Assembly: GCA_964469115.1 (NCBI GenBank)
Contig: CAYXXW010000001.1
Location: 12,824-55,080, forward strand
Source: an uncultured Melioribacteraceae bacterium
GTDB taxonomy: Bacteria; Bacteroidota; Ignavibacteria; Ignavibacteriales; Melioribacteraceae
Direction: 5' to 3'
Length of the DNA stretch: 42,257 nucleotides
Below are positions 6,739-42,257 of the stretch, in pieces. The notes under the pieces are model-generated. The model was not told the origin of the DNA, made no database searches, and saw only the letters and a program-made list of their open reading frames with translations. Positions within the stretch are counted from its first letter, which is position 1. Each line of letters starts with the position of its first letter. Made by a program: the position numbers and the translations under genes.

Positions 6739-7554
6739 TTAATCCAATAGATTTAAATAATTGTTAACTCTCTTTATATAGTTCTGTGTTTCCTTAAAAG
6801 GAGGAATACCATTATATTTTTTAACATTTCCCGGCCCGGCATTATAAGCGGCTAAAGCTAATTCAGTATCACCATCAAAGTCATCCAAAAGTTTAGATAA
6901 ATACTTTGTACCGCCAAATATATTTTCTTCAGGATTCCATGGATTATTTACACCCATATCTGTTGCTGTTGAGTCCATAAGCTGCATTAATCCTTTTGCA
7001 TTAGCTTTAGATTGAGCATTAACTTTTCCAGCTGATTCTGTTAGAATTACAGATTTTATAAGCTGCTTATCCACATTAAACTTTTCGGATGCAGAATTTA
7101 TTAAATTTTCAAATTCTTTAATTCTGTTAAGAGCACTGCTATTTACTTTAGAATTCTTTTCCAAAACCGATTTACTTTTGGTATCAATTGAATTTAGACT
7201 GCTCGGTGAAATAGTTTTTTTGCTGACTAAATTCTGCAATGAAGTAATGTTTTCTCCTGTGAGACTATTATATATTTGCTCTGCTACGCCCATACCTTGC
7301 TGATCAGTTATATGTTTAGCTAATTCTTTTTCAAATAATACATCTAAAACATCTCCACCATAGTTATCTTTACCGAATAAGCCTTCTGTCGTTTTGGTCA
7401 TACTCTTAATCATCATACCTGTAAGCATGCTTTCAAATTCTTTTGATGCTTTAGCCAGCTTAGCTTTTTCTTTGGGAGAATATTTTTCAGATACATCTAT
7501 TCCGTTCTTAAAGTGAGCTGCTTGATTCGATATTTTTAAATCTATTGGCTTCAT
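6739..7554 (-). CDS. flgJ: FlgJ-type rod-cap protein with a C-terminal lytic transglycosylase (SLT) domain
   Basis: The N-terminal rod-binding motif is KEFESMLTGMMIKSMTKT...LFEKELAKHI. The C-terminal SLT/GH23 motifs are LTESAGK, KGLMQLM and AAYNAGPGNV. Confidence 0.85.
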   Translation of the reverse strand: MKPIDLKISNQAAHFKNGIDVSEKYSPKEKAKLAKASKEFESMLTGMMIKSMTKTTEGLFGKDNYGGDVLDVLFEKELAKHITDQQGMGVAEQIYNSLTGENITSLQNLVSKKTISPSSLNSIDTKSKSVLEKNSKVNSSALNRIKEFENLINSASEKFNVDKQLIKSVILTESAGKVNAQSKANAKGLMQLMDSTATDMGVNNPWNPEENIFGGTKYLSKLLDDFDGDTELALAAYNAGPGNVKKYNGIPPFKETQNYIKRVNNYLNLLD

Positions 7555-7555
7555 T

Positions 7556-8653
7556 TTACATTATTACCAATTCAGCTGTTAACGCTCCGGCTTCTTTTAA
7601 TGCCTGGAATATTGCAATAATATCTCTTGGAGATACTTTAAGTGAATTCAGTGCCGCAGCAACTTCCTGAGCATTAGAAGCTCCCTCAATTGAATACGTA
7701 CTATTTTCGACTTCATCTTCATTTACATCAGGTACTTGATTATTAAACACAGTTGTCTGCCCTTGAGAGAAAGGCGATGGTTGAGAAATTATCGGAAAAG
7801 ATCTAATTTCAATATTTAAGCTTCCATGAGATATTGATACTGGTGAAATTTTAACATTTGAACCTGCAACAACGGTTCCGGTTCTTTCATTTAATACAAC
7901 TTTAGCAATAACATCCTTAATTACTTCAATAGATTCAATACGTGCTAGAAACTCAGTAAGGCTTGTTTGTCCATCGTTTGGAAGTGTTAATGCTATTTCT
8001 GCACCATCAACTAATGTTGCAATCTGAGTTCCAAAAGCGGTATTTATTGAGTCAGCAATAGTATTTGATGTAGTAAAATCCGGGTCTTTGAGAATAATGC
8101 TCAGTTCTTCTGGCACAAATCCTTCTTCCAAAATTGATCTTTCTAAAAGCCCTCCATTAGGAATTCTTCCGCTTAACGCGTGATTTTTAGCGATCCTTCC
8201 TCCAGAACTTGTGTTAATATCATAACCGCCAATCGAAACTGCTCCTTGGCACATAGCATAAACATCTCCGCTATGTTTTGAGAGAGGTGTCATTAACAAT
8301 GTGCCTCCCATCAAACTTTTCGCATCACCCATTGAAGCAACCGAGACATCAAACTCACTTCCCTCTTTTGAAAGATTGCTGACTTTCGCAGTAACCATAA
8401 CTGCTGCAACATTTCTGGTTCTTAAGTTTGTTTCCGGTACGGTTATACCAAATCTTTTTAGCATACTAGTAACCGATTGAACAGTAAATGTCGATCGATG
8501 ACTGTCTCCGGTTCCACTCAAACCGACTACCAACCCATAACCAATTAACTGTTCCGATGTTATACCTTTGAAGTAAGCAATATCTTTAATACGCTGAGCA
8601 AACAGCAAATTACTTACTAAGATTAGAACTATAAAATATTTTAATATCCTCAT
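7556..8653 (-). CDS. flgI: P-ring protein FlgI
   Basis: A signal peptide (MRILKYFIVLILVSNLLFAQ) is followed by RIKDIAYFKG..QLIGYGLVVGLSGTGD. The C terminus reads ...PRDIIAIFQALKEAGALTAELVIM. The ORF track start at 8695 overlaps flgH, so I prefer ATG 8653. Confidence 0.93.
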   Translation of the reverse strand: MRILKYFIVLILVSNLLFAQRIKDIAYFKGITSEQLIGYGLVVGLSGTGDSHRSTFTVQSVTSMLKRFGITVPETNLRTRNVAAVMVTAKVSNLSKEGSEFDVSVASMGDAKSLMGGTLLMTPLSKHSGDVYAMCQGAVSIGGYDINTSSGGRIAKNHALSGRIPNGGLLERSILEEGFVPEELSIILKDPDFTTSNTIADSINTAFGTQIATLVDGAEIALTLPNDGQTSLTEFLARIESIEVIKDVIAKVVLNERTGTVVAGSNVKISPVSISHGSLNIEIRSFPIISQPSPFSQGQTTVFNNQVPDVNEDEVENSTYSIEGASNAQEVAAALNSLKVSPRDIIAIFQALKEAGALTAELVIM

Positions 8654-10699: not shown

Positions 10700-11407
10700 T
10701 TATACTTTTCCTAAATCTGATTCTTGACTCAATATTGAATCAAGCGATGTAATCATTTTTTGAGCAGCTTCATAATCTTTCTGAAGCTGAATCATTGCCT
10801 GCATTTCTAATATTGCATTCGTATTTGATGATTCTAAATAACCATGTTGAATTTCAAATTCATTATCTGTTGCAACTATATATTCTTTGTCTTCATTAAA
10901 AAATCTTTGACCTTCAGTTTTAGTTAACCTTTGTTCATCTGCTACTTTCATCATTTTTAATTTTGAGACAATTTTATCACCAGACTTTATTTCACCATTC
11001 TTAGTTATGGTTATATTTGCTTTTCTGCTAATTAATTCCTCTTGCAAATTGATTTCACCATTTTCGCCCATTACTCTAAAACCTTCTCTTGTTGCCAAGA
11101 ATCCTTGTGTATCAATCACAAAATCTCCGCTACGAGTAAGATGATCACCTTCCGGAGTTTTAACTGTGAAATATGCTTTGCCTGAAATAGCGGCATTTAG
11201 AGGATTACCGGTCTCTTCAAAAACACCTTCGGAAAAATCAGTTAACTTTCTTTGAATTGTAGCTTGTTCTTCATCAAACACTTCAGAAAAGGCTAAACCA
11301 CGCTTGAATGCAGTAGAATTTAGGTTCGCTAAATTATTAGCTACTATTTGAATATTTAAAACTTTATTACGCATTGCTGTTGCAGCATTTTCTAAAGACG
11401 GTTCCAT
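10700..11407 (-). CDS. flgF: Proximal rod protein FlgF
   Basis: The rod-family N terminus (IQIVANNLANLNSTAFKR) and C terminus (GYLESSNTNAILEMQAMIQLQKDYEA) are present. It is shorter than FlgG and lies directly upstream of it. Confidence 0.85.
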   Translation of the reverse strand: MEPSLENAATAMRNKVLNIQIVANNLANLNSTAFKRGLAFSEVFDEEQATIQRKLTDFSEGVFEETGNPLNAAISGKAYFTVKTPEGDHLTRSGDFVIDTQGFLATREGFRVMGENGEINLQEELISRKANITITKNGEIKSGDKIVSKLKMMKVADEQRLTKTEGQRFFNEDKEYIVATDNEFEIQHGYLESSNTNAILEMQAMIQLQKDYEAAQKMITSLDSILSQESDLGKV

Positions 11408-11408
11408 C

Positions 11409-11606
11409 TTATCCTTTTAATTCAGTTTGTTCATCAAATTTTTTGTTTTTGCATTTCATTAAATCAATAGTAAATTCTGACACTTCTTTTGATAATATTT
11501 TTATAATTCTATCTTCTTTAATTTGCGTCTCTAGTGATTTATTCAATATTCTGTTTTTACCATTAGTTATTTTATTTTTAACTGCATATTCAATAATTGA
11601 TTCCAT
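11409..11606 (-). CDS. Hypothetical 65-aa basic protein
   Basis: The ORF ends 1 nt before the flgF ATG and starts 25 nt after the orf383 stop. I recognise no family. Confidence 0.4.
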   Translation of the reverse strand: MESIIEYAVKNKITNGKNRILNKSLETQIKEDRIIKILSKEVSEFTIDLMKCKNKKFDEQTELKG

Positions 11607-11631
11607 AATGAAACAATCTCACTAACACATC

Positions 11632-12783
11632 TCACGATATTAGTTTGTTTAACTCCACATTTAGTTTTGAAGCTTTAGAATTATTTTTCACTTTACTATT
11701 AACTTTAACATCGGCATTAATTTCCCAATTACCTCTTAATCTATCTTCAATTGAAATAATTTCTTCTTTCTCGACCAAATTTTCCGGCAGATCAATATCA
11801 CCTGCAAAAAAATTATTTCTTATAATCCCTTTTAATTCAAAAGGAAGTGAATCACTACTAAAAATCACTTTGTAAGAAACCTTGTTATTAGTGTTAAATA
11901 ATTTCTTAACGCTATAATGAATAATCTCTAATTCATTATCTTTTTTAACAATAACAAAATCTGGATAGTAATCGTAATCTTTAAGAACAGATTTTTGGAG
12001 AATATACTTTGTGGAGTAAAGGATGTATTCCAATATAATTGCGGTATCTGCATTAGCGTTCGAATTTTGATACTCATTTAAGAGCTTTATAATCTCATAA
12101 AGACCTTTTGATTTATCGACCAATGATTTTGTGTTTTCATCTTTACGGTTATAAATTAATTTTTCACCAATTTGATGAGTAATATATTGGGGCAGATTAG
12201 AAAATAGAAGTTCATTAATTGCCTTAAACAAGTTTTCGCTTACCTCTTTAAAGGTTTCATTAAAAAGGTCACTGTATAGTTCATCAATAAATTGCTTATT
12301 CTTATCATTATTATTCCAAACAAGATTGATAACTAATGATAGCTCTAGTCCGTTAACCTTTATATATCTTAATAATTCAGTTAGCTGTACAAACTTCGAT
12401 TTTATTAGAATATTGCCTTCCTCAATAACCTTTAAAATTAACTTTCTATTAAATGAAGAATTCTTTAATTCAAATTTTTTAATTACCTCATCAAGCAATA
12501 CAGTGTTGTCCTTGCTTAACTCAGAGTTTAAAGTGAGAGAAAGAGTAAAAGGATTTGAACTCTGAACAATTGCTATTATTTCCTCTTTAATAGGAATTTT
12601 ACCTTCGATAAAGGCAATATACAGTTTACCATCAATCAATGCTTTAACGCCTTTTTCTAAAAACTCAATTGGTATAAGTTTAACAACAGAATTTTTGAGT
12701 GGCATATTTGGAGCAATACTTATAGAACTTCTAAGCTTTGTGATATTTTCAAGATTGATGATATTTCTAATTTCACTTTTCAT
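11632..12783 (-). CDS. Hypothetical 383-aa soluble protein, flagellar-operon embedded
   Basis: This long ORF fills the space in the operon frame, and its ATG overlaps the orf154 stop (ATGA). I see no signal peptide or TM segment and recognise no family. Confidence 0.6.
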   Translation of the reverse strand: MKSEIRNIINLENITKLRSSISIAPNMPLKNSVVKLIPIEFLEKGVKALIDGKLYIAFIEGKIPIKEEIIAIVQSSNPFTLSLTLNSELSKDNTVLLDEVIKKFELKNSSFNRKLILKVIEEGNILIKSKFVQLTELLRYIKVNGLELSLVINLVWNNNDKNKQFIDELYSDLFNETFKEVSENLFKAINELLFSNLPQYITHQIGEKLIYNRKDENTKSLVDKSKGLYEIIKLLNEYQNSNANADTAIILEYILYSTKYILQKSVLKDYDYYPDFVIVKKDNELEIIHYSVKKLFNTNNKVSYKVIFSSDSLPFELKGIIRNNFFAGDIDLPENLVEKEEIISIEDRLRGNWEINADVKVNSKVKNNSKASKLNVELNKLIS

Positions 12784-13244
12784 CTTGTTTGATTTTGTAG
12801 TTGTTGAATTTTGGCAGCTAAGAATAATTCACCTTTGGCAATTGATAACTTTTTAGCAGTTGATGTTATTGTTTTGCCTGTTAATCTCTTTTTCTCAATT
12901 GCGTTTGCCAGAGATTTTCTTCTTGAACTATTCTTATTTCTAACTGTTGGTTTAATTCTTTCATCTCTTATTGCACTAATATTTTTTTTATATCTGTTTG
13001 TATCAAATTTTTTGCTATCCGTTCTAGTTCTCTTCCAGTAAAACAATACCAAAACAAGAATTGCTAATTCACCAAAAACTACGCTGGTAGTTATAATTCT
13101 TTCAGAAGCACTATTTCCAAATATTGAACCGGTTTGCTCATTAGCTTCAACGACTTCAGCACTTTTTTTCATATCATAAGGTTTGCTTTGTGCCGAAAGC
13201 GTCAATGTTAATACAGTTAATATTAGAAATAGTATCTTTTTCAT
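12780..13244 (-). CDS. Hypothetical 154-aa bitopic membrane protein with a very basic cytoplasmic tail
   Basis: It has a signal peptide (MKKILFLILTVLTLTLSAQS) and one TM segment (VVFGELAILVLVLFYW), then a K/R-rich tail ending in the HTH-like GKTITSTAKKLSIAKGELFLAAKI. It has 4-nt overlaps with both neighbours. Confidence 0.6.
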   Translation of the reverse strand: MKKILFLILTVLTLTLSAQSKPYDMKKSAEVVEANEQTGSIFGNSASERIITTSVVFGELAILVLVLFYWKRTRTDSKKFDTNRYKKNISAIRDERIKPTVRNKNSSRRKSLANAIEKKRLTGKTITSTAKKLSIAKGELFLAAKIQQLQNQTR

Positions 13245-14539
13245 TTTCTTATTTTACGTTTTAATGGAAATGAAAGAACGAGTGCCGCTCCACTGTTTTC
13301 AAAGGAGCCAATTTCAAATTGACCTTCATGTTTTTTCATTAAATTTTTAATTATGCTTACTGATAAATTTTGCTGAACGTTATTATTTTTCGCTTTATTA
13401 GATGCGTCCACTTTATTCGTTGAAATAACTCTAAGTATTACATTATCATCTTTGAATCTTGTTTGAATAATAACGCCGCCTTTTTTAGTCTTACTATTCT
13501 TTATCAATGAAAATATATTTGTCAAAAGCTGATAAATATAATTTGGGTGACTTAAGATTGAAGGCAGATCATTCTCAAAATCTAGTATATATTCTAGGTT
13601 TGCGTTATCCAATGTTGATTTTACAAGAAAGAAATAATCATTAAGTATGCTGTTTATATTGCACGGTTGAATTTTTATGTCTTTCTGATTAACATTTGCA
13701 AACTTCACCAACCTTCCAACAACATTATTAATTTTTTTAATCTGAGATTTTATTTGAGTTAGTTCAATTTGTCTATCCAGCTCGTTATTAAGTATATCAA
13801 CATTGCTAGAAATTACTTGTAATGGTGTAACGATATCTTCCACAATACCTTCTGTCATTTCGCCTATTGCCGATAACCTAAAATCATTTGAAAGTTTTGC
13901 TTGGTATGTTTGCAGCTCTTCGTAAGTTTCATTTAGTTTTTCGGTGAGTTTTAATTTTTCCAGTTTTCCTAAAAGCATGTTCAAGAAAATATTAATACTC
14001 TTTTTCTCTAACTCAGAGATATTATTTTGGTCTAATGACGTAAGTAGAGCAAGTATTCCATAATTCTTTTTGTCATCATAAACCGGGAATATTAAGTAGA
14101 ACAATTTCGATCCGTTGCCATTATAGCTTTCCAGATCGGGGACCGTGATAGTTTTTCTATCTTCAAAAACTTCGCTGAAAATACCTTCTTTATTAAAATG
14201 ATTCATCTGCTGAACAATACTTAAATCGTCCTCTTCATCAAGAGGAATAAGCTCTCTATTAAAATCATCATAGAATAAAAGTTCAAGCCCTTTAACCGGT
14301 ATAATTCCTTTAACGTATCTTAAGAATCTTGAAGTAAGAATTTTAACATTTGTATCATGCTTAATTTCTTGTTCAAATGCCATCAAATTCTGGATGAAGT
14401 AGGAATACTTTTCGAGCATCTTTAAGTCATTTGAATCAGTTATAGAATGAACATTTTCTCTACTGTTATAAAGAGATAAATCGCTAATAGATTTATATAA
14501 AGGTTCAGCCCTTAAGGTATTTTCTTTGTGCAGTATCAT
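13241..14539 (-). CDS. Degenerate (likely phospho-dead) histidine-kinase-like protein with an N-terminal GAF-like region
   Basis: The DHp helix LSAIGEMTEGIVEDIVTPLQVISSNVDIL aligns to the ..GEmaAgiAHEIrNPL.. H-box, but Glu234 (codon 13838-13840) replaces His. The N-box Asn is kept (QLLTNIFSLIKNS). G1 (DxGxG becomes ISTNKVD) and G2 (GxGLGL becomes QQNLSVSI) are eroded. There is no TM segment. Confidence 0.7.
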   Translation of the reverse strand: MILHKENTLRAEPLYKSISDLSLYNSRENVHSITDSNDLKMLEKYSYFIQNLMAFEQEIKHDTNVKILTSRFLRYVKGIIPVKGLELLFYDDFNRELIPLDEEDDLSIVQQMNHFNKEGIFSEVFEDRKTITVPDLESYNGNGSKLFYLIFPVYDDKKNYGILALLTSLDQNNISELEKKSINIFLNMLLGKLEKLKLTEKLNETYEELQTYQAKLSNDFRLSAIGEMTEGIVEDIVTPLQVISSNVDILNNELDRQIELTQIKSQIKKINNVVGRLVKFANVNQKDIKIQPCNINSILNDYFFLVKSTLDNANLEYILDFENDLPSILSHPNYIYQLLTNIFSLIKNSKTKKGGVIIQTRFKDDNVILRVISTNKVDASNKAKNNNVQQNLSVSIIKNLMKKHEGQFEIGSFENSGAALVLSFPLKRKIRK

Positions 14540-15414
14540 TATGAGAATAAGTCCGAGTCAATTTCTTCACTAAATAGTTCTCTATAGCTTTCAACAAATG
14601 AATCTATTTCTTCCTCGTTGCCAATACCTAAAATTTCTAAAACTGATGTATCTAACTCCATACCTCTATCCATGTAGTATCCGCCAATTTCAAGTTTTTG
14701 AGTCATAAAATCGACTAAATGCACAATTGAAGTAAGCACATCTTTTTCCGGAGCATCACTTGGCTTATGATGATATAATATTGAGGTTGCTAAATGATCA
14801 GGCAAACTCCATTTTTGAGATAAGAAGTTTCCAATTTCTTGATGATCCATACCCAAGTATTTCTTTTCAACTTCAAGTACCGAAGTATCACCTGAGTTAA
14901 ATTCATCAACAATTTCTTGAAATTCATTCTTAAAGAATTTATGCATAACAGGTATTCCTAAATCATGCAGTAATCCGACAACAAAAGCTTCGCTGCCAAT
15001 TCTAAATCCTAAATCTTCCGCAACTCTTTTGCATGCAGTACCGGCTAACATTGAGTGCATCCAAAATGAATTTTGATCTAGATACTTATCAGATTTGTTT
15101 CTAAAAGAATCTACCATTGTTAATGCAACTACAATATTTTTAATATCTTGGTAGCCAATAATTAAAATTGCAAAATCGATTGTTGATACTTTTCTTGTCA
15201 AACCATATAATGGTGAATTCGCAATTGACAGAATTTTTGTTGATAGACCTTGGTCCTTTCCAATTATTTTGCTTAATGCCGATGTGTTGGTGGAAGGATC
15301 ATCAAGTAATGTTGATACTTCCAGCATTGTTGTTGACATTGCAGGCAGATTGTAGACGTTAGACAAAGCATGTTCCGATTTTTGTCTTTTTTCTTGGTTG
15401 ATTTGTTCTTCCAT
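14539..15414 (-). CDS. HDOD-domain protein (paralog B)
   Basis: HDOD motifs are present: LPAMSTTMLEVSTLLDDPSTNTSALSKIIGKDQGLSTKILSIANSPLYG, LLHDLGIP and LYHHKP. Its stop shares 1 nt with the next ATG. Confidence 0.85.
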   Translation of the reverse strand: MEEQINQEKRQKSEHALSNVYNLPAMSTTMLEVSTLLDDPSTNTSALSKIIGKDQGLSTKILSIANSPLYGLTRKVSTIDFAILIIGYQDIKNIVVALTMVDSFRNKSDKYLDQNSFWMHSMLAGTACKRVAEDLGFRIGSEAFVVGLLHDLGIPVMHKFFKNEFQEIVDEFNSGDTSVLEVEKKYLGMDHQEIGNFLSQKWSLPDHLATSILYHHKPSDAPEKDVLTSIVHLVDFMTQKLEIGGYYMDRGMELDTSVLEILGIGNEEEIDSFVESYRELFSEEIDSDLFS

Positions 15415-15440
15415 GTTTTTACTATCCTTATGATATGAAA

Positions 15441-16334
15441 TTAAATATTAATTGCTTCTAATTGATCTTCAAATAATTCTTTATAACTGTAAATAAAATT
15501 TTCCAAGTATTCTTCATCACCTAACCTAAGAATTTCAATGACTTCTTTATCAAGTTCGCTGCCATCATCCCAAGTAAAGTCTCCTATCTTTAATTGCTTT
15601 GTCATGTAATCTGCAAGATGCACAAGAGCAATAAGTTCTCTGTTATTTTCTGCTAATGAAGGATTGTGATGAAATGAAATAACGTCTGAAATTGAAACCG
15701 GTAAATTCCATCGATCCACTAAAAATCTCCCAATATCTTGATGCGTTATTCCCAAAATGTTTTCCTCAGCTTCTAAGTAAGTCATCTTATTTTTGATGAC
15801 TGCCTCTGTTATTTCTTTATATTCTTTATTAAAGTATTTGTATATAATCGGGATCCCAAGATCGTGAAGTAATCCGGCGGTAAAAACTTCACCGCTTGTT
15901 TGATAACCCAAGTCATCTGCAATACGCTTTGAAGCAGCTGCTGTCAAAATCGAATGGACCCAATATTTTGTCTGATCGAATTTTTTATTACCTAATACCT
16001 TAAGCGTTTCCATCATACTTAATGCAACAACTATATTTTTAACTTGATCGAATCCAAGAACTACAATTGCAAAATCGATTGTTGCTACTCTTCTTGGAAT
16101 TCCATGTAATGGTGAATTAGCGATTGTTAATATCTTTGTAACTAATCCCTGATCATTACTAATCATCCTGCCAAGAATTGATGCACTGGTTTTAGGATCT
16201 TCAATAAGGTTAGAGACTTCTAAAATAATCTGTGGAACAGTCGGCACATTGTAAACCGAAGAAAGTATTCGTTCAACTTTTTTCAGATTTGGGTTAATAT
16301 TTTCTTTTTCACTATTAGTCATATTGTCTTTCAA
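15441..16334 (-). CDS. HDOD-domain protein (paralog A)
   Basis: HDOD motifs are present: VPTVPQIILEVSNLIEDPKTSASILGRMISNDQGLVTKILTIANSPLHG, LLHDLGIP and SFHHNP. The start overlaps the fliA 3' end; an alternative ATG lies at 16322. Confidence 0.85.
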   Translation of the reverse strand: MKDNMTNSEKENINPNLKKVERILSSVYNVPTVPQIILEVSNLIEDPKTSASILGRMISNDQGLVTKILTIANSPLHGIPRRVATIDFAIVVLGFDQVKNIVVALSMMETLKVLGNKKFDQTKYWVHSILTAAASKRIADDLGYQTSGEVFTAGLLHDLGIPIIYKYFNKEYKEITEAVIKNKMTYLEAEENILGITHQDIGRFLVDRWNLPVSISDVISFHHNPSLAENNRELIALVHLADYMTKQLKIGDFTWDDGSELDKEVIEILRLGDEEYLENFIYSYKELFEDQLEAINI

Positions 16335-16947
16335 TTTTCTTTTTAAGTTCTCTCATAATTTTTGAGTGAAGCTGAGAAACTCTTGAAACAGTTATATCTA
16401 AAATTTTAGATACTTCTTTGTAGTTCATATGTTCATAATAGTAAAGTGTAATTATCAGTCTGTCGCGTTCGTTTAAATCCTTAATTGCTTGAACTAATAA
16501 TTCTTTCCTTTCTAATGAATGATATTCATCATCGGGAAGTTCATATTCAGATGGAATTATATCTGAAAGTGTGAAGCCGTCTTCAGAATCAAAAGGTTGA
16601 TCTATTGAAACGTTTCTGTAAACAACCTTGTTGGGATCTTGGTTTTGGTAATTTGCACGAGGTTTAATCTGAAGTTTTCTCAATTCGTCAATTATCTTTC
16701 CTCTAATCCTCTGAATCGCATAAGTTTCAAACTTGGTGCCGAAATCAGGATCAAATCTATCGATTGCTTCACTTAATCCTTCTACTCCAAACTGAAAGTA
16801 ATCTTTTTCTTCAACTACATTTAAATTCATAAATTTTGAGTTATGTATTACGTAGTGAACAAGATTTGTGTAATTAACCATTATTTGTTTTTTTAACCCA
16901 CTTGATGGTTCTGTTTTAAACTCTGTCCAAAGTGTGGTATTATTCAT
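16315..16947 (-). CDS. fliA: Flagellar sigma factor FliA (sigma-28)
   Basis: Region 2 reads FDPDFGTKFETYAIQRIRGKIIDELRKL. Region 4 has the HTH YKEVSKILDITVSRVSQLHSKIMRELKK. At 210 aa it lacks region 1, as is typical of the sigma-28 group. Confidence 0.92.
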   Translation of the reverse strand: MNNTTLWTEFKTEPSSGLKKQIMVNYTNLVHYVIHNSKFMNLNVVEEKDYFQFGVEGLSEAIDRFDPDFGTKFETYAIQRIRGKIIDELRKLQIKPRANYQNQDPNKVVYRNVSIDQPFDSEDGFTLSDIIPSEYELPDDEYHSLERKELLVQAIKDLNERDRLIITLYYYEHMNYKEVSKILDITVSRVSQLHSKIMRELKKKIERQYD

Positions 16948-16967
16948 ATTAATTTCTTCCTAATTGG

Positions 16968-17177
16968 TTAACTGTAAAAATTTTTTTGTTTTTCAATTGA
17001 TGTTTTATTTATTGCTCTTATAAATGAAAGAGCAAGAACAGTTAGCATTAGGGTTGCAACAAAAAAAATGATAAAGGATTTGAGCAATATATCCTGTACT
17101 AGCATACCCTGTTGGCTGAAAATTATAATTGAGATAAAAAATATTAACAAGCCCACATTTAGTATAATTTTATTCAT
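16968..17177 (-). CDS. Hypothetical 69-aa two-TM membrane protein
   Basis: Two hydrophobic helices are present. A good Shine-Dalgarno (AGGAG) lies 6 nt upstream of the ATG. It is the first gene after the 109-bp spacer and ends 20 nt upstream of fliA. Confidence 0.55.
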   Translation of the reverse strand: MNKIILNVGLLIFFISIIIFSQQGMLVQDILLKSFIIFFVATLMLTVLALSFIRAINKTSIEKQKNFYS

Positions 17178-17201
17178 ATTAATCTCCTGGCAATAGTAAT
17201 T

Positions 17202-17216
17202 TCAAAGAATATACCA
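17202..17216 (-). promoter_or_regulatory. Weak sigma-54-like -24/-12 element upstream of orf69-fliA
   Basis: The minus strand reads TGGTATattctTTGA, 24 nt before the orf69 ATG. It is one mismatch from the TGGCAT-N5-TTGA motif found upstream of flgB and fliL. Confidence 0.25.
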
Positions 17217-17286
17217 AAGGTTTTTTGGCAAAAAAATCGTTTTTTAGCTTAAATTCGGGGTTTTTATTTTTGTAGAATGGTTATTA

Positions 17287-18102
17287 TTAACCATTTGTTG
17301 GTATTCTTAACTTGTTTATTATGTCTGTAAATTGATGTGAAATTTTTGATGAGTTTTCAATACTAACAATTGGGTTTTGAGCTTGTATAGACTTAATAAT
17401 TTCTTCGGAAAAAGAAAGCTCACCAAGATAATTAATATCGTATTTTAAGAAGTGCTTTGTGGCTTTTTCCAGATTTCCAAATGCTTCTTCAGCTTCACCA
17501 TCCTTAAAACATTTATTTATTACAACATTTTTAACAACTTGTGAACCATTGCTTTTTAGAAGTTTAAAAATAACATATGCATCCATCACCGAAGTAGGTT
17601 CAGGTGTTGTAACTAGAATTATCTCATCAGATTTAAGAAGTAGCTGAATTGTACCCTGATCGGCACCAGAAGCAGTATCAAGTATAATAATATCATAGTT
17701 GTCTGAGAGAATTCTCAATTCCTCAATAAGAAGATTTGACCGTTCTTCATTCAATTTGGGATGATCTATTTTACCTGACTCCCCTAAAACCAAGTGTAAA
17801 TTCTCTGAATATATATAGATAATATCTTCTAAGGTCTGATTAAAAGTTAAGTACTGATATAATGTTTTTTTTGATGAAGCATTAAACATTACACTGAGAT
17901 TGGCAAAGTTTAAATCCAAATCCAATAATAGAACTTTCGATCCTTCATTTGATAATTCCACTGCAAGATTACTTGCTAAAAATGATTTTCCCGTTCCCCC
18001 TTTACCTGATGTTACCGAAATTATTTTGCATCCGGAAGTTGGTAAAACATTCTCTTTAAGTAAACCATTTAATTGATATAGTCTTTCAGCTTGACCAAGC
18101 AT
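17287..18102 (-). CDS. flhG: MinD/ParA-type flagellar number regulator FlhG (YlxH/FleN)
   Basis: It has the deviant Walker A ISVTSGKGGTGKSFLASNLA and Walker B IIILDTASG. It lies directly downstream of flhF. Confidence 0.9.
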   Translation of the reverse strand: MLGQAERLYQLNGLLKENVLPTSGCKIISVTSGKGGTGKSFLASNLAVELSNEGSKVLLLDLDLNFANLSVMFNASSKKTLYQYLTFNQTLEDIIYIYSENLHLVLGESGKIDHPKLNEERSNLLIEELRILSDNYDIIILDTASGADQGTIQLLLKSDEIILVTTPEPTSVMDAYVIFKLLKSNGSQVVKNVVINKCFKDGEAEEAFGNLEKATKHFLKYDINYLGELSFSEEIIKSIQAQNPIVSIENSSKISHQFTDIINKLRIPTNG

Positions 18103-38191: not shown

Positions 38192-38434
38192 TTATCCTCT
38201 CTTATCGAATAATGAACCTAAAGAAACACCTTTCTTGTCACCATCTTTATTGTAAAAATGATAACCATCAATCTGCTCTTTATTTTCAGGGTACATATTT
38301 GTGAAAAACTTTTTTTCTTCATTTGTAACTCTTAGTGAATCTTCATTTTTCTTTATTTCTACTTTATTAACATTATTATTTTGATTTGCTCTAATAGGAT
38401 TATAATTACCAAATGAGTTAGTAGAAATCTTCAT
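38192..38434 (-). CDS. Hypothetical 80-aa protein inserted between flgC and fliE
   Basis: The ORF exactly fills the flgC-fliE gap: its ATG directly abuts the flgC stop and its stop lies 1 nt before the fliE ATG. The product is hydrophilic with no TM segment. The N-terminal half is loosely FlgM-like (MKIS.N.FG.YNP...N...DSLRVTNEEKK), but the sigma-28-binding C-terminal pattern is absent. Confidence 0.5.
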   Translation of the reverse strand: MKISTNSFGNYNPIRANQNNNVNKVEIKKNEDSLRVTNEEKKFFTNMYPENKEQIDGYHFYNKDGDKKGVSLGSLFDKRG

Positions 38435-39654: not shown

Positions 39655-40728
39655 TTAAATCGCCTTATTTATAATATTAGGAATTTCCTCTAATGAGGCA
39701 ACAACATCGGCTAATCCGTTTTCTATAATTGCTCTTGGCATACCATAAACTACACAAGATTCTTCATCTTGTGCGATGCAATGTCCGCCAGCAGCTTTAA
39801 TTTTTTTAATACCATCCAACCCATCTTTACCCATACCGGTCATTATTAAACCTAAAATATTCTTGCCATAAGCCTCGTGTAATGAGTGGAGCATTACGTC
39901 TACAGATGGTTTGTGGAGAACATCATCGGGTTTATCTGAAATTTTTATTGTTATGTTATTTACTTTATCTGTTTTAAATTTAAGGTGAAATCCGCCAGGA
40001 GCAATATACACTACCCCATTTCGTACAACTTCATTATCTTCTGCTTCCTTTACTTGGAGCGGACTCAAAGAATTAAGCCTGTCTGCGAGGGACGCCGTAA
40101 ATTTAGGCGGCATATGCTGAACTATAAAAATTGGTATATTTATTTTCTCAGATAATAACGGCACAACTTTTTGTAATGAAATTGGTCCCCCAGTAGAAAT
40201 ACCAATGGCTAATGCACTATAACGCAACTTAGGTAATTTAGATAACGCTGGTTTCTGAATCTTTAATTTTTTATTATCATTAGAGCTAGTTCGACTTATT
40301 TTTTTAGCTACTGCTTTACTACTGTGAATAGCCTTAACTTTACTAACTAACTCATCCTTAATACTTGTTATTGCAACACTAACAAAGGACATTTCCTTAG
40401 GGATGAAATCAATAGCACCTAATTCTAATGCTTTAAGAGTAGTATCCGCGCCTTCTAGTGTAAGTGAACTCACCATTAAAACGGGTGTTGGGCATTCCTT
40501 CATTATAATTTGAAGTGCCGAAATGCCATCCATGTTCGGCATTTCTACGTCTAATGTAACAATATCCGGATGGAGAGTTTTTATTTTTTCAATCGCAATA
40601 AGTCCGTCACTTGCAGTATCAATTACTTTAATTTGCGGATCTGATTCTAAAAGTAATGTCAATGATTTTCGCATGAAAGCGGAATCATCAACCACAAGTA
40701 TTTTGATCTGTTCAGCCATTTTATCCAA
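39655..40728 (-). CDS. cheB: Chemotaxis methylesterase/response regulator CheB
   Basis: It has a receiver domain (ILVVDDS, TLDVEMPNMDG) and a methylesterase domain (AIGISTGGP, IVQHMPPKFT, GMGKDG). Confidence 0.95.
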   Translation of the reverse strand: MDKMAEQIKILVVDDSAFMRKSLTLLLESDPQIKVIDTASDGLIAIEKIKTLHPDIVTLDVEMPNMDGISALQIIMKECPTPVLMVSSLTLEGADTTLKALELGAIDFIPKEMSFVSVAITSIKDELVSKVKAIHSSKAVAKKISRTSSNDNKKLKIQKPALSKLPKLRYSALAIGISTGGPISLQKVVPLLSEKINIPIFIVQHMPPKFTASLADRLNSLSPLQVKEAEDNEVVRNGVVYIAPGGFHLKFKTDKVNNITIKISDKPDDVLHKPSVDVMLHSLHEAYGKNILGLIMTGMGKDGLDGIKKIKAAGGHCIAQDEESCVVYGMPRAIIENGLADVVASLEEIPNIINKAI

Positions 40729-42257
40729 TTAATTTATTTACAATTTCACCAATATCGGCAATCATTACTACTGCACCATCGCCCATAATTGTTGAACCGG
40801 CAACACCTTCAATGTTACCCAAATATTTACCAAGTGATTTAATTACTATTTCTTTTTGTCCAATAAGATCATCAACTTTTATTCCATATTTTTTCTCCGC
40901 CAATCCAACTACAACAACAAACTGATTTTCTGAGTCTTTTTGAAGAGTATCTCTATGGTAAAGTAGATTGTCGATGTTAATTAATGGTAAAACTCTATCT
41001 CTTAATTTTATACATGCTGTTTTATTAACATTGTAAATTTGTTCTTTTTTAATCTTTACAACTTCTACAACAGAGCTTAGCGGCAAAATAATGGTTTCGC
41101 CGGCAACTTTAACCAATAATCCTTGAATTATTGCCAATGTTAAAGGCAATTTAATATCTATTTTGGTCCCTTTCCCAACTTCAGAATCAATTTCAATTAT
41201 GCCACGAAGACGGGTAACATTAGTTTTGACAACATCCATGCCCACACCTCTTCCAGAAACGTTGGTCACTTTTTCTGCAGTTGAAAAACCAGGAGCAAAT
41301 ATTAAGTTAAATATTTCTTGTCTAGATAATTCCTCGGCCTTTTCTCTTGTAATTATTCCTTTTGAAATGGACTTATTAACAATTATTTCAGGGTCAATTC
41401 CTTTTCCGTCATCAATAATCGAAATAATTATATGATTTCCTTCATGCTCGGCTGATAGTGTAATTGTACCGGTTTTGTTTTTACCCTCTTTTTCTCTCTG
41501 CTCGGGCGGTTCAATTCCATGATCAACTGAATTTCTTATTAGATGAACCAATGGATCGTTGATTTCCTCAATTAGAGTTTTATCTAGCTCAGTTTTTTCT
41601 CCCTTAATTACCAGATTGATATTTTTACCGGTTTCTTTACTTAAATCTCTAACTAATCTTGGGAATTTATTAAATACCTTTCCAATTTTAATCATTCTGG
41701 TTTTCATCACGGCTAGCTGCAATTCTGTAGTCAGCAAATCAATTTGTCTAGCTGTGTCACCAAGATTTCTAGCAATCTCTGTACCTTCATAATTAATTGC
41801 TACATCATTGTTTAACTGAGCAAGTCTGTTTCTGCCCAGAACTAATTCTGAAACCAAATTGAGCAATTCATCAAGACGCTCAACATCTACCCTAATAGTT
41901 TGTTCAGCTGCCGGCTTGGGTGCAGAATTATTTGCACTATCAAGAGTATTGCTTTTTACTGGTTGCGGTTTAATTTCTTCCTTTTTGATTCTAGGTTCAA
42001 CCTTTTTTTCACCAAGATTAAGTTCAAACTCTACCGGAGTGCTATTCCCTACATTTCTTATTTCTTCTTTTGGTTCTTCTATTGCAGTCACTAGTTCTGC
42101 GGTGATAGCCAATCCTTTAGAACTTTCGGCTCTCATTTTCTTATTACTTTCAATAAATGCTTTCTGTATTGCTTCTTCAACTAATTCTTTAACTTCCTCT
42201 TTGACTATAGCACTTTCTTCTTCAAAGTTCCCATTTTCTAAATTTCCAAGAATGTTT
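40721..42257 (-). CDS. cheA: Chemotaxis histidine kinase CheA (P3-P5 and part of the linker visible; the N-terminal HPt region is off-window)
   Basis: The frame stays open upstream of the M at 42136 to the window edge (hand translation NILGNLENGNFEEESAIVKEEVKELVEEAIQKAFIESNKK-MRAESS...). The dimerisation motif is IRVDVERLDELLNLVSELVLGRNRL. The HATPase motifs are HLIRNSVDHGIE, DDGKGID and GRGVGMDVV. A C-terminal CheW-like domain is present. Confidence 0.95.
   Translation of the reverse strand, partial: NILGNLENGNFEEESAIVKEEVKELVEEAIQKAFIESNKKMRAESSKGLAITAELVTAIEEPKEEIRNVGNSTPVEFELNLGEKKVEPRIKKEEIKPQPVKSNTLDSANNSAPKPAAEQTIRVDVERLDELLNLVSELVLGRNRLAQLNNDVAINYEGTEIARNLGDTARQIDLLTTELQLAVMKTRMIKIGKVFNKFPRLVRDLSKETGKNINLVIKGEKTELDKTLIEEINDPLVHLIRNSVDHGIEPPEQREKEGKNKTGTITLSAEHEGNHIIISIIDDGKGIDPEIIVNKSISKGIITREKAEELSRQEIFNLIFAPGFSTAEKVTNVSGRGVGMDVVKTNVTRLRGIIEIDSEVGKGTKIDIKLPLTLAIIQGLLVKVAGETIILPLSSVVEVVKIKKEQIYNVNKTACIKLRDRVLPLINIDNLLYHRDTLQKDSENQFVVVVGLAEKKYGIKVDDLIGQKEIVIKSLGKYLGNIEGVAGSTIMGDGAVVMIADIGEIVNKLIG

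Follow-up and report, generated by a model that had tools for sequence, protein, structure and literature searches.

A conserved pseudo-histidine kinase with glutamate at the phospho-acceptor site in the flagellar gene cluster of Ignavibacteria

To our knowledge, very few pseudo-histidine kinases have been described in bacteria, and DivL is the paradigm. Known examples include DivL and the degenerate kinase modules of plant ethylene receptors and phytochromes, to which NifL and RetS may be added in a looser sense. DivL is a pseudo-kinase that reads the response regulator DivK~P, and it acts through binding by its dimerisation and histidine phosphotransfer (DHp) domain, not by phosphotransfer (PMC4211667). 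The present analysis concerns another protein of this kind, encoded by an open reading frame (ORF) on the minus strand at 13241..14539 of a 42,257-nt stretch (the window) of DNA from an uncultured Melioribacteraceae bacterium of the class Ignavibacteria (assembly GCA_964469115.1, contig CAYXXW010000001.1, positions 12,824 to 55,080). All coordinates are positions in the whole window, and residue numbers are those of the 432-aa pseudo-kinase. The protein is soluble and consists of a GAF-like domain, a signalling helix, a DHp domain and a degenerate catalytic and ATP-binding (CA) domain; Glu replaces the acceptor His, and the gene follows fliA and two HDOD genes in a flagellar gene cluster.

The acceptor position is occupied by Glu234. 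The codon at 13840-13838 (13838..13840, minus strand) is GAA; together with the GAT that comes next it encodes E234-D235. The first-pass annotation, made from the sequence of this window, had proposed a His-to-Glu replacement at least two nucleotides away from CAT or CAC, and GAA does differ from these codons at two positions. When a profile of 61 family members was aligned against PDB sequences, the family segment 'GelteGivedivsPl' was placed on 'GHLAAGVAHEIRNPL' of ZraS (E 5e-12) and on 'GEMTARVAHEIRNPI' of ThkA, with E234 opposite His in each; a third solved kinase aligned in the same register, with its His at E234. BLASTP against the closest canonical relative, P0201, likewise placed E234 opposite the His of 'GIAHEINNPLQ'. 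The Pfam HisKA match was weak (residues 226-282, E 0.011, below the gathering threshold); taken with the profile and BLASTP alignments, it upheld the column assignment. The former H-box, GEMTEGIVEDIVTPL (residues 226-240; 13820..13864, minus strand), had kept all of its residues but the His, those retained being G226, E227, T229, G231, D/E235, S/T/N238, P239, L240 and Q241. An acceptor His shifted to another place in the DHp region (residues 176-285) was also looked for and rejected, since no column of that region had a conserved His among 63 species. A His one residue past the Glu ('VEHIFSPLQ') was seen in three representatives of the Glu-bearing clade (P0148, P0164 and P0172).

The ATP-binding boxes of the CA domain were lost as well. 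A remnant of the N-box lies at 13496..13540 and the remnant of G1, F-box, lid and G2, which is the fastest-evolving part of the protein, at 13352..13429 (both minus strand). The nearly invariant N341 aligned with the first Asn of the N-box (NLxxNA). In EnvZ and HK853 it is the second Asn that binds Mg-ATP, and the column of this residue is occupied by L345/I346. The earlier statement that the N-box Asn was retained was therefore correct for the first, non-Mg Asn and incorrect for the Mg-binding one. The G1 region reads ISTNKVD, with S373 in place of Asp ('ISTN' vs 'TDTG'), and G2 reads 'QQNLSV' in place of 'GTGLGL', both as described before. In addition, the F-box is gone and some 10 residues have disappeared from the lid: from T374 to H404 the median length is 30 residues in members without the His and 40 in His-bearing relatives. 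No member of the Glu clade has retained the N, G1 or G2 motif. Judged from its motifs, the protein would thus fail every catalytic feature of HisKA kinases (acceptor His, Mg-ATP Asn, G1, F-box and G2) with the fold kept; because the acceptor His and all nucleotide-binding motifs have been lost, it is most probably a pseudo-kinase incapable of normal ATP binding and of autophosphorylation, as the first reading of the sequence had reasonably supposed.

The fold itself is that of a sensor kinase. In the AlphaFold2 (AF2) model, an alpha/beta domain resembling GAF leads into a long signalling helix, after which come the DHp helical hairpin and a CA domain, also of alpha/beta type. Foldseek matched the model best to sensor kinases, namely LOV-FixL chimeric kinases (8a6x), YF1 (4gcz) and ZraS, at E 1e-13 to 1e-15, while CckA was matched at 3e-10 (template-modelling score 0.72 to target). 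This bore out the relationship to HisKA and HATPase_c proteins. The sensor domain (approximately residues 41-175; 14015..14419, minus strand) is probably a remote GAF, as had been suspected: Pfam GAF_2 matched it at E 0.03, below the gathering threshold, the family profile matched the GAF domain of 4mcw at 6e-6, and the alpha/beta fold was modelled with a predicted local distance difference test (pLDDT) value of 80-90. His-bearing relatives match GAF, GAF_2 and GAF_3 significantly. The signalling helix and DHp hairpin follow (residues 176-285, with helices at 176-250 and 254-284; 13685..14014, minus strand), and the degenerate, HATPase_c-like CA domain (residues 286-432; 13244..13684, minus strand) was recognised through alignments and a Pfam HATPase_c match at E 0.083. 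No transmembrane segment was found, the maximum Kyte-Doolittle value being 1.11, again in agreement with the first description. Matches to NCBIfam were partial, below threshold and confined to the DHp-CA part (AtoS, ZraS, CreC and NtrB); scores of 67 bits for AtoS (cut-off 646), 42 for ZraS (479) and 28 for NtrB (240) meant that no full-length score exceeded a curated cut-off, and the protein is not a member of these equivalogs. No dedicated Pfam or NCBIfam model matches the family, and homologs are named 'hypothetical protein', 'KdpD' or 'HAMP domain-containing histidine kinase' in public annotation.

The substitution is fixed and under purifying selection across the class Ignavibacteria. The first search returned 111 full-length homologs, all from Ignavibacteria-type metagenome-assembled genomes (MAGs), with Glu at the site in 110 and Asp in one. 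Among 63 species-level Ignavibacteria genomes the site was Glu in 61, Asp in one and Gly in one, and never His, so the conservation of Glu in orthologs that the first-pass annotation had asked about was found. An exhaustive profile search over 1.84 billion cluster representatives widened the clade to about 80 clusters at 50% identity; among these 80 representatives the site was Glu in 67, Asp in 6, Gln in 4, Thr in 2 and Ser in one, never His, and hence acidic in 73 (91%). A negative charge at site 234 is strongly preferred but not obligatory, because Gln, Thr and Ser occur among the representatives. That Glu234 serves as a permanent phospho-mimic, as suggested in the first-pass annotation, is a conceivable reading. 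Adjacent positions were constrained also: D/E235 was present in 69/80, S/T/N238 in 69/80, and P239 and Q241 were nearly invariant or invariant. An ortholog with 44% identity (L055) is present in the cultured Melioribacter roseus. The closest genome to the window was an uncultured Ignavibacteriales MAG (L005), with 95% amino-acid identity; the ratio of nonsynonymous to synonymous substitution (dN/dS) between the two was 0.028 overall, at dS of approximately 0.9. By region, dN/dS was 0.016 for the GAF domain, 0.015 for the linker plus DHp, 0.052 for the CA domain and 0.11 for the lid remnant, the last rising to 0.3-0.6 in more distant pairs. Mean column conservation was highest in DHp helix 1 (0.80), followed by the CA domain (0.64) and the GAF domain (0.50); 46 columns were invariant, and the ORF was intact in 63 species. 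The protein thus combines a histidine kinase fold with a substituted acceptor residue that is conserved under selection, as expected of pseudo-histidine kinases of the DivL-like functional class. This class is also marked by DHp-mediated binding of a response regulator or another partner without phosphotransfer, which the pseudo-kinase may share; the high conservation of DHp helix 1 supports this indirectly.

Active relatives of the pseudo-kinase were found in the same place in the operon. The next-best representatives after the Glu clade (E 1e-46 to 1e-22) were canonical kinases, with 'AHEINNPLQ', 'NLLINARD', 'DTGxGI' and 'GTGLGLS' motifs. Two of these could be placed on contigs (L069 and L070), and both occupied the slot; the order there was flhF, flhG, a small ORF, fliA, one HDOD gene, a GAF-HisKA-HATPase_c kinase, an ORF of about 200 aa, and then flgF, flgG, flgA, flgH, flgI, flgJ, flgN and flgK. 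Close homologs of the L070 protein belong to Candidatus Kryptobacter tengchongensis, Candidatus Chrysopegis kryptomonas and Kryptoniota MAGs. The Kryptonia kinase (e.g., P0201) has the same domain order and length as the pseudo-kinase and is collinear with it over 370 aa (22% identity, E 5e-29); it shares the slot fliA-HDOD-X-~200-aa ORF-flgF. It differs in having the His (AHEINNPLQ), NxxxNA, DTGxGI, the F-box and GTGLGL, while its locus differs in having one HDOD neighbour, where the window has two, and a full-length FliA. Because related GAF kinases of Candidatus Kryptonia, where they are fully canonical, and of related uncultured lineages fill the same slot, the window gene is the positional ortholog, most probably catalytically dead, of a flagellar-operon kinase.

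Intermediate and parallel states were observed elsewhere in the family. His-bearing relatives stand directly after fliA-HDOD in L069, L070, L074 and L075; those of L074 and L075 (P0212 and P0219, both at 7001-8422) keep the His and have lost G1 and G2, and so are 'half-dead'. L074 also contains a second GAF-HisKA ORF, of 279 aa and without a CA domain, 1.2 kb downstream. In a further clade related to these, the His is replaced by Asn, Leu or Arg (including L072 455-3620 and L071 7001-8278). In L072, a full FliA/WhiG sigma factor, an HDOD protein and a pseudo-kinase with Asn at the His site are followed by non-flagellar genes (a Por_Secre_tail protein and rpe). A neighbour-joining tree of family representatives set the motif-losing groups apart as separate clades; the tree is rough and long-branch effects are likely among degenerate sequences, so that it is suggestive of a loss of catalytic motifs in at least three clades of the flagellar-operon GAF-kinase family. 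If true, this would mean that the core, ancestral job of the family is non-catalytic.

The neighbours of the gene changed together with it. The order flhG-fliA-HDOD-HDOD-X-(TM)-(U383)-flgF, with the pseudo-kinase at X, was near-universal among Ignavibacteria loci, and start and stop codons overlap. In the window (all minus strand) the conserved module opens with fliA, encoding sigma-28 (16315..16947), followed by HDOD protein 1 (15441..16334) and its tandem paralog HDOD protein 2 (14539..15414), which has a 1-nt overlap with the pseudo-kinase gene, the first base of its stop codon being the last base of the pseudo-kinase start codon. Both HDOD paralogs are stand-alone proteins with a passing HD-domain match. 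Two copies occur in nearly all Ignavibacteria loci (one in L047), and one copy in L069, L070 and L074. The FliA of the window is 210 aa long and lacks sigma region 3; aligned with the 258-aa FliA of Kryptonia it shows a 42-residue gap. Its match to TIGR02479 is broken into two parts and scores 153 bits, less than the 189.6-bit cut-off. FliA is 208 aa long in two other Ignavibacteria loci (L001 and L003). Between the Ignavibacteria and the Kryptonia-type group, FliA identity was 33-35% (56-66% within the class) and kinase identity approximately 21% (38-45% within the class), while FlgG identity was 59-61% (63-66% within the class). FliA, HDOD and kinase have drifted much further apart from one group to the other than have the structural proteins of the flagellum. 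Kinase death, HDOD duplication and loss of FliA region 3 all appear to accompany the same transition, on the branch leading to Ignavibacteria. No receiver (REC) gene was co-conserved in the core module, the fixed operon partners being FliA and the two HDOD proteins. HDOD proteins have been linked to flagellar gene expression (PMC6543031), and the HDOD protein SadB is a non-enzymatic adaptor for the transcription regulator AmrZ (PMC12075610).

The reading preferred here, at a probability of about 0.5, is that the protein is a GAF-regulated dimeric docking protein of the sigma-28/HDOD module that signals without phosphotransfer. Its ancestor would have been a cytoplasmic NtrB/AtoS-type GAF histidine kinase, which in Ignavibacteria would have lost the acceptor His (to Glu), the Mg-binding Asn, the G1/F/G2 boxes and about 10 lid residues. 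ATP binding and autophosphorylation would thereby have been abolished and the protein retained as a dimeric GAF-DHp-CA scaffold. The functional centre may be that face of DHp helix 1 which was once the H-box (E234, D/E235, S/T/N238, P239 and Q241-V242-I243), at which a partner would be bound stoichiometrically and under GAF control; the output would be a tuning of sigma-28-dependent late flagellar gene expression or assembly. A receiver domain, the co-translated HDOD proteins and FliA are the candidate partners. Several points weigh against this reading. The conserved core module has no REC gene; the loss of ATP binding and autophosphorylation is deduced from motifs, and co-transcription with fliA from gene overlaps; and the confidence of the AF2 model was moderate (pLDDT 75, predicted template-modelling score 0.46).

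The main rival to the docking model is a dedicated response-regulator phosphatase or phosphate sink, in which the DHp would dock a phosphorylated receiver and dephosphorylate it through an [E/D]xx[T/N/S] motif. It holds this place because the motif is retained, with D/E235 and S/T/N238 each in 69/80 representatives and P239 and Q241 nearly or fully invariant, and the family models nearest to the protein (AtoS, ZraS and NtrB) describe bifunctional kinases. When NtrB or EnvZ is made kinase-dead by mutation of its His, phosphatase activity survives. HisKA kinases need the Thr or Asn at His+4 for their phosphatase activity alone (Willett & Kirby, PMC3510030). However, the commonest residue at +4 in the present family is Ser and not the canonical Thr or Asn, the phosphatase activity of many HisKA kinases is stimulated by nucleotide bound to the CA domain, a site that is gone here, and the module is without a co-conserved REC gene. 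The phosphatase is a possible but rather doubtful alternative.

More doubtful still is the proposal that FliA, the HDOD proteins and the dead kinase constitute a phosphorylation-independent, GAF-gated control module for sigma-28, an anti-sigma or adaptor complex that would have been rebuilt as a unit on the Ignavibacteria stem when FliA region 3 was lost, HDOD duplicated and kinase catalysis lost. A direct regulation of FliA, with the pseudo-kinase and HDOD proteins binding sigma-28 as an anti-sigma or co-regulator complex that supplements or replaces FlgM-type control, is unlikely on present evidence. The triad of sigma factor, HDOD and kinase persists in L072 though no flagellar gene follows, and region 3 of FliA was lost on the same branch as kinase catalysis and the single HDOD state. 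No FlgM family match was obtained among all large and small ORFs of the 42-kb window, although flgM may lie elsewhere in the genome. GHKL-fold anti-sigma factors do exist, for example SpoIIAB and RsbW, but those known need ATP-binding motifs and have no DHp. The basis of the proposal is co-location. The sole apparent fusion of HDOD and kinase, a 708-aa HDOD-GAF-kinase protein (P0357, L073 7001-9127), was rejected as Rosetta-stone evidence; it is probably an assembly artefact because flhA, flgI and fliA of L073 are all split by frameshifts.

A RetS-like inhibitor, which would use its dead DHp to heterodimerise with a genuine kinase through the DHp of the latter and so inhibit it, is less plausible again; RetS kinase-region structures were among the fold matches and DHp helix 1 is highly conserved, but the operon contains no candidate partner kinase and in no respect do the data favour hetero- over homodimerisation. 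It is highly improbable that the protein is a still-active kinase relying on an atypical acceptor or nucleotide site. H331 and H404 show little or no variation and three representatives have a His at +1, but these two residues belong to the CA domain, H404 being the structural 'HxG' that is conserved in active kinases too, the DHp has no conserved His, none of the four nucleotide-binding motifs is left and the lid has become shorter. Finally, a functionless decaying relic or sequencing artefact, which might be suggested by Pfam domain scores under gathering thresholds, is already refuted by the conservation data: dN/dS was 0.03 at dS of about 0.9, the ORF is intact in 63 species, 46 columns are invariant, and the codon is two substitutions from His.

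The window is AT-rich (approximately 32% GC), and nearly all of it is a single minus-strand flagellar and chemotaxis supercluster. From the upstream end, the order on the minus strand was cheA, cheB, flgB, flgC, fliE, fliF, fliG, fliH, fliI, fliJ, a 182-aa ORF (MgtE_N-like), fliK, flgD, a 125-aa ORF (Flagellar_put), flgE, fliL, fliM, fliN, fliO, fliP, fliQ, fliR, flhB, flhA, flhF, flhG, fliA, the two HDOD genes, the pseudo-kinase gene, the genes for a 154-aa membrane protein and a 383-aa protein, flgF, flgG, flgA, flgH, flgI, flgJ, flgN, flgK, flgL, motA, motB, fliW, csrA and the gene for a REC protein. The gene for the 154-aa membrane protein (12780..13244) has a 4-nt overlap with that of the pseudo-kinase, and the gene for the soluble 383-aa protein of unknown function (11632..12783) a 4-nt overlap with that of the membrane protein (both minus strand); neither protein matched Pfam or NCBIfam. 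Both genes are apparently translationally coupled to the pseudo-kinase and are co-conserved in most Ignavibacteria, but their detection fails or nearly fails in the Ignavibacteriaceae loci that diverge most (L062-L064 and L068); in Kryptonia their slot holds a DUF6115/DUF2802-like protein. A promoter and terminator scan of 11000-17600 gave counts equal to the shuffled expectation and was uninformative.

Other observations concern the remaining genes of the supercluster (all minus strand). A hydrophobic 69-aa ORF between flhG and fliA (16968-17177) had no family match, and a small ORF upstream of fliA was also seen in the inspected loci L003, L069, L070 and L073-L075; an 80-aa ORF between flgC and fliE (38192-38434) had no family match either. 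The CheA ORF (40721-42136, 471 aa) contains the dimerisation, HATPase_c and CheW-like domains (P3-P5) only and lacks Hpt (P1) and P2, its dimerisation domain beginning at residue 78; the Hpt may be encoded separately, past the window end. The REC protein (877-1569, 230 aa) matched the first 199 residues of PleD over its full length, and its C-terminal half looks like a second, degenerate receiver, not an HPt. Directly after fliW comes csrA (1566-1811); the two are the FliW-CsrA pair that usually controls flagellin post-transcriptionally.

Pseudo-histidine kinases as such are not new. The Ignavibacteria family is not described in the literature searched; searches for a His-to-Glu pseudo-kinase, for HDOD with fliA and for flagellar regulation in Ignavibacteria returned nothing specific. 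A whole class carries the pseudo-kinase, and active, half-dead and dead forms share one conserved operon slot; they provide an evolutionary series for asking what a kinase scaffold does after catalysis has been lost. The finding connects a protein of two-component type with sigma-28 and with the HDOD domain, which is poorly understood. It suggests that flagellar regulation in Ignavibacteria and Kryptonia has a layer not yet studied, and it corrects the names under which homologs are publicly annotated.

Among described systems, soluble NtrB-class kinases encoded with flagellar genes (FlgS, FlrB and FleS) offer a plausible functional analogy for the active Kryptonia ortholog; they differ in being active and paired with sigma-54 activators, none of which was seen here, and no specific sequence relationship was shown. 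SpoIIAB and RsbW are stand-alone HATPase_c proteins in which the N, G1 and G2 boxes are intact and a DHp is absent, whereas the pseudo-kinase has the DHp and lacks the boxes. RetS of Pseudomonas is kinase-like and its output is the binding of another signalling protein's DHp; it is, however, a membrane hybrid kinase with REC domains, and for the pseudo-kinase no evidence of a partner kinase was found. NifL, the anti-activator of NifA, shares the NtrB-related sensor-H-GHKL architecture and binds its partner stoichiometrically without phosphotransfer, and there was a weak match to the NifL family (TIGR02938, E 4e-4) and a fold match to the NifL-NifA complex. NifL retains a functional nucleotide-binding GHKL domain, whereas that site is gone from the pseudo-kinase; sensors, partner and pathway also differ. 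The analogy with DivL, drawn already in the first-pass annotation, is apt in concept, in that both have a histidine kinase fold with a substituted and conserved acceptor residue. DivL was found neither among PDB sequence matches with E up to 1e-3 nor among the 50 best fold matches, and with its best matches being AtoS, ZraS and NtrB the pseudo-kinase is not a DivL ortholog; nor is the family orthologous to the plant receptor modules, NifL or RetS. In Caulobacter DivL, His is replaced by Tyr, the sensor consists of multiple PAS domains and the setting is the cell cycle; in the Ignavibacteria protein, His is replaced by Glu, the sensor is a GAF-like domain, the ATP-binding motifs are wholly erased and the setting is a flagellar fliA-HDOD operon.

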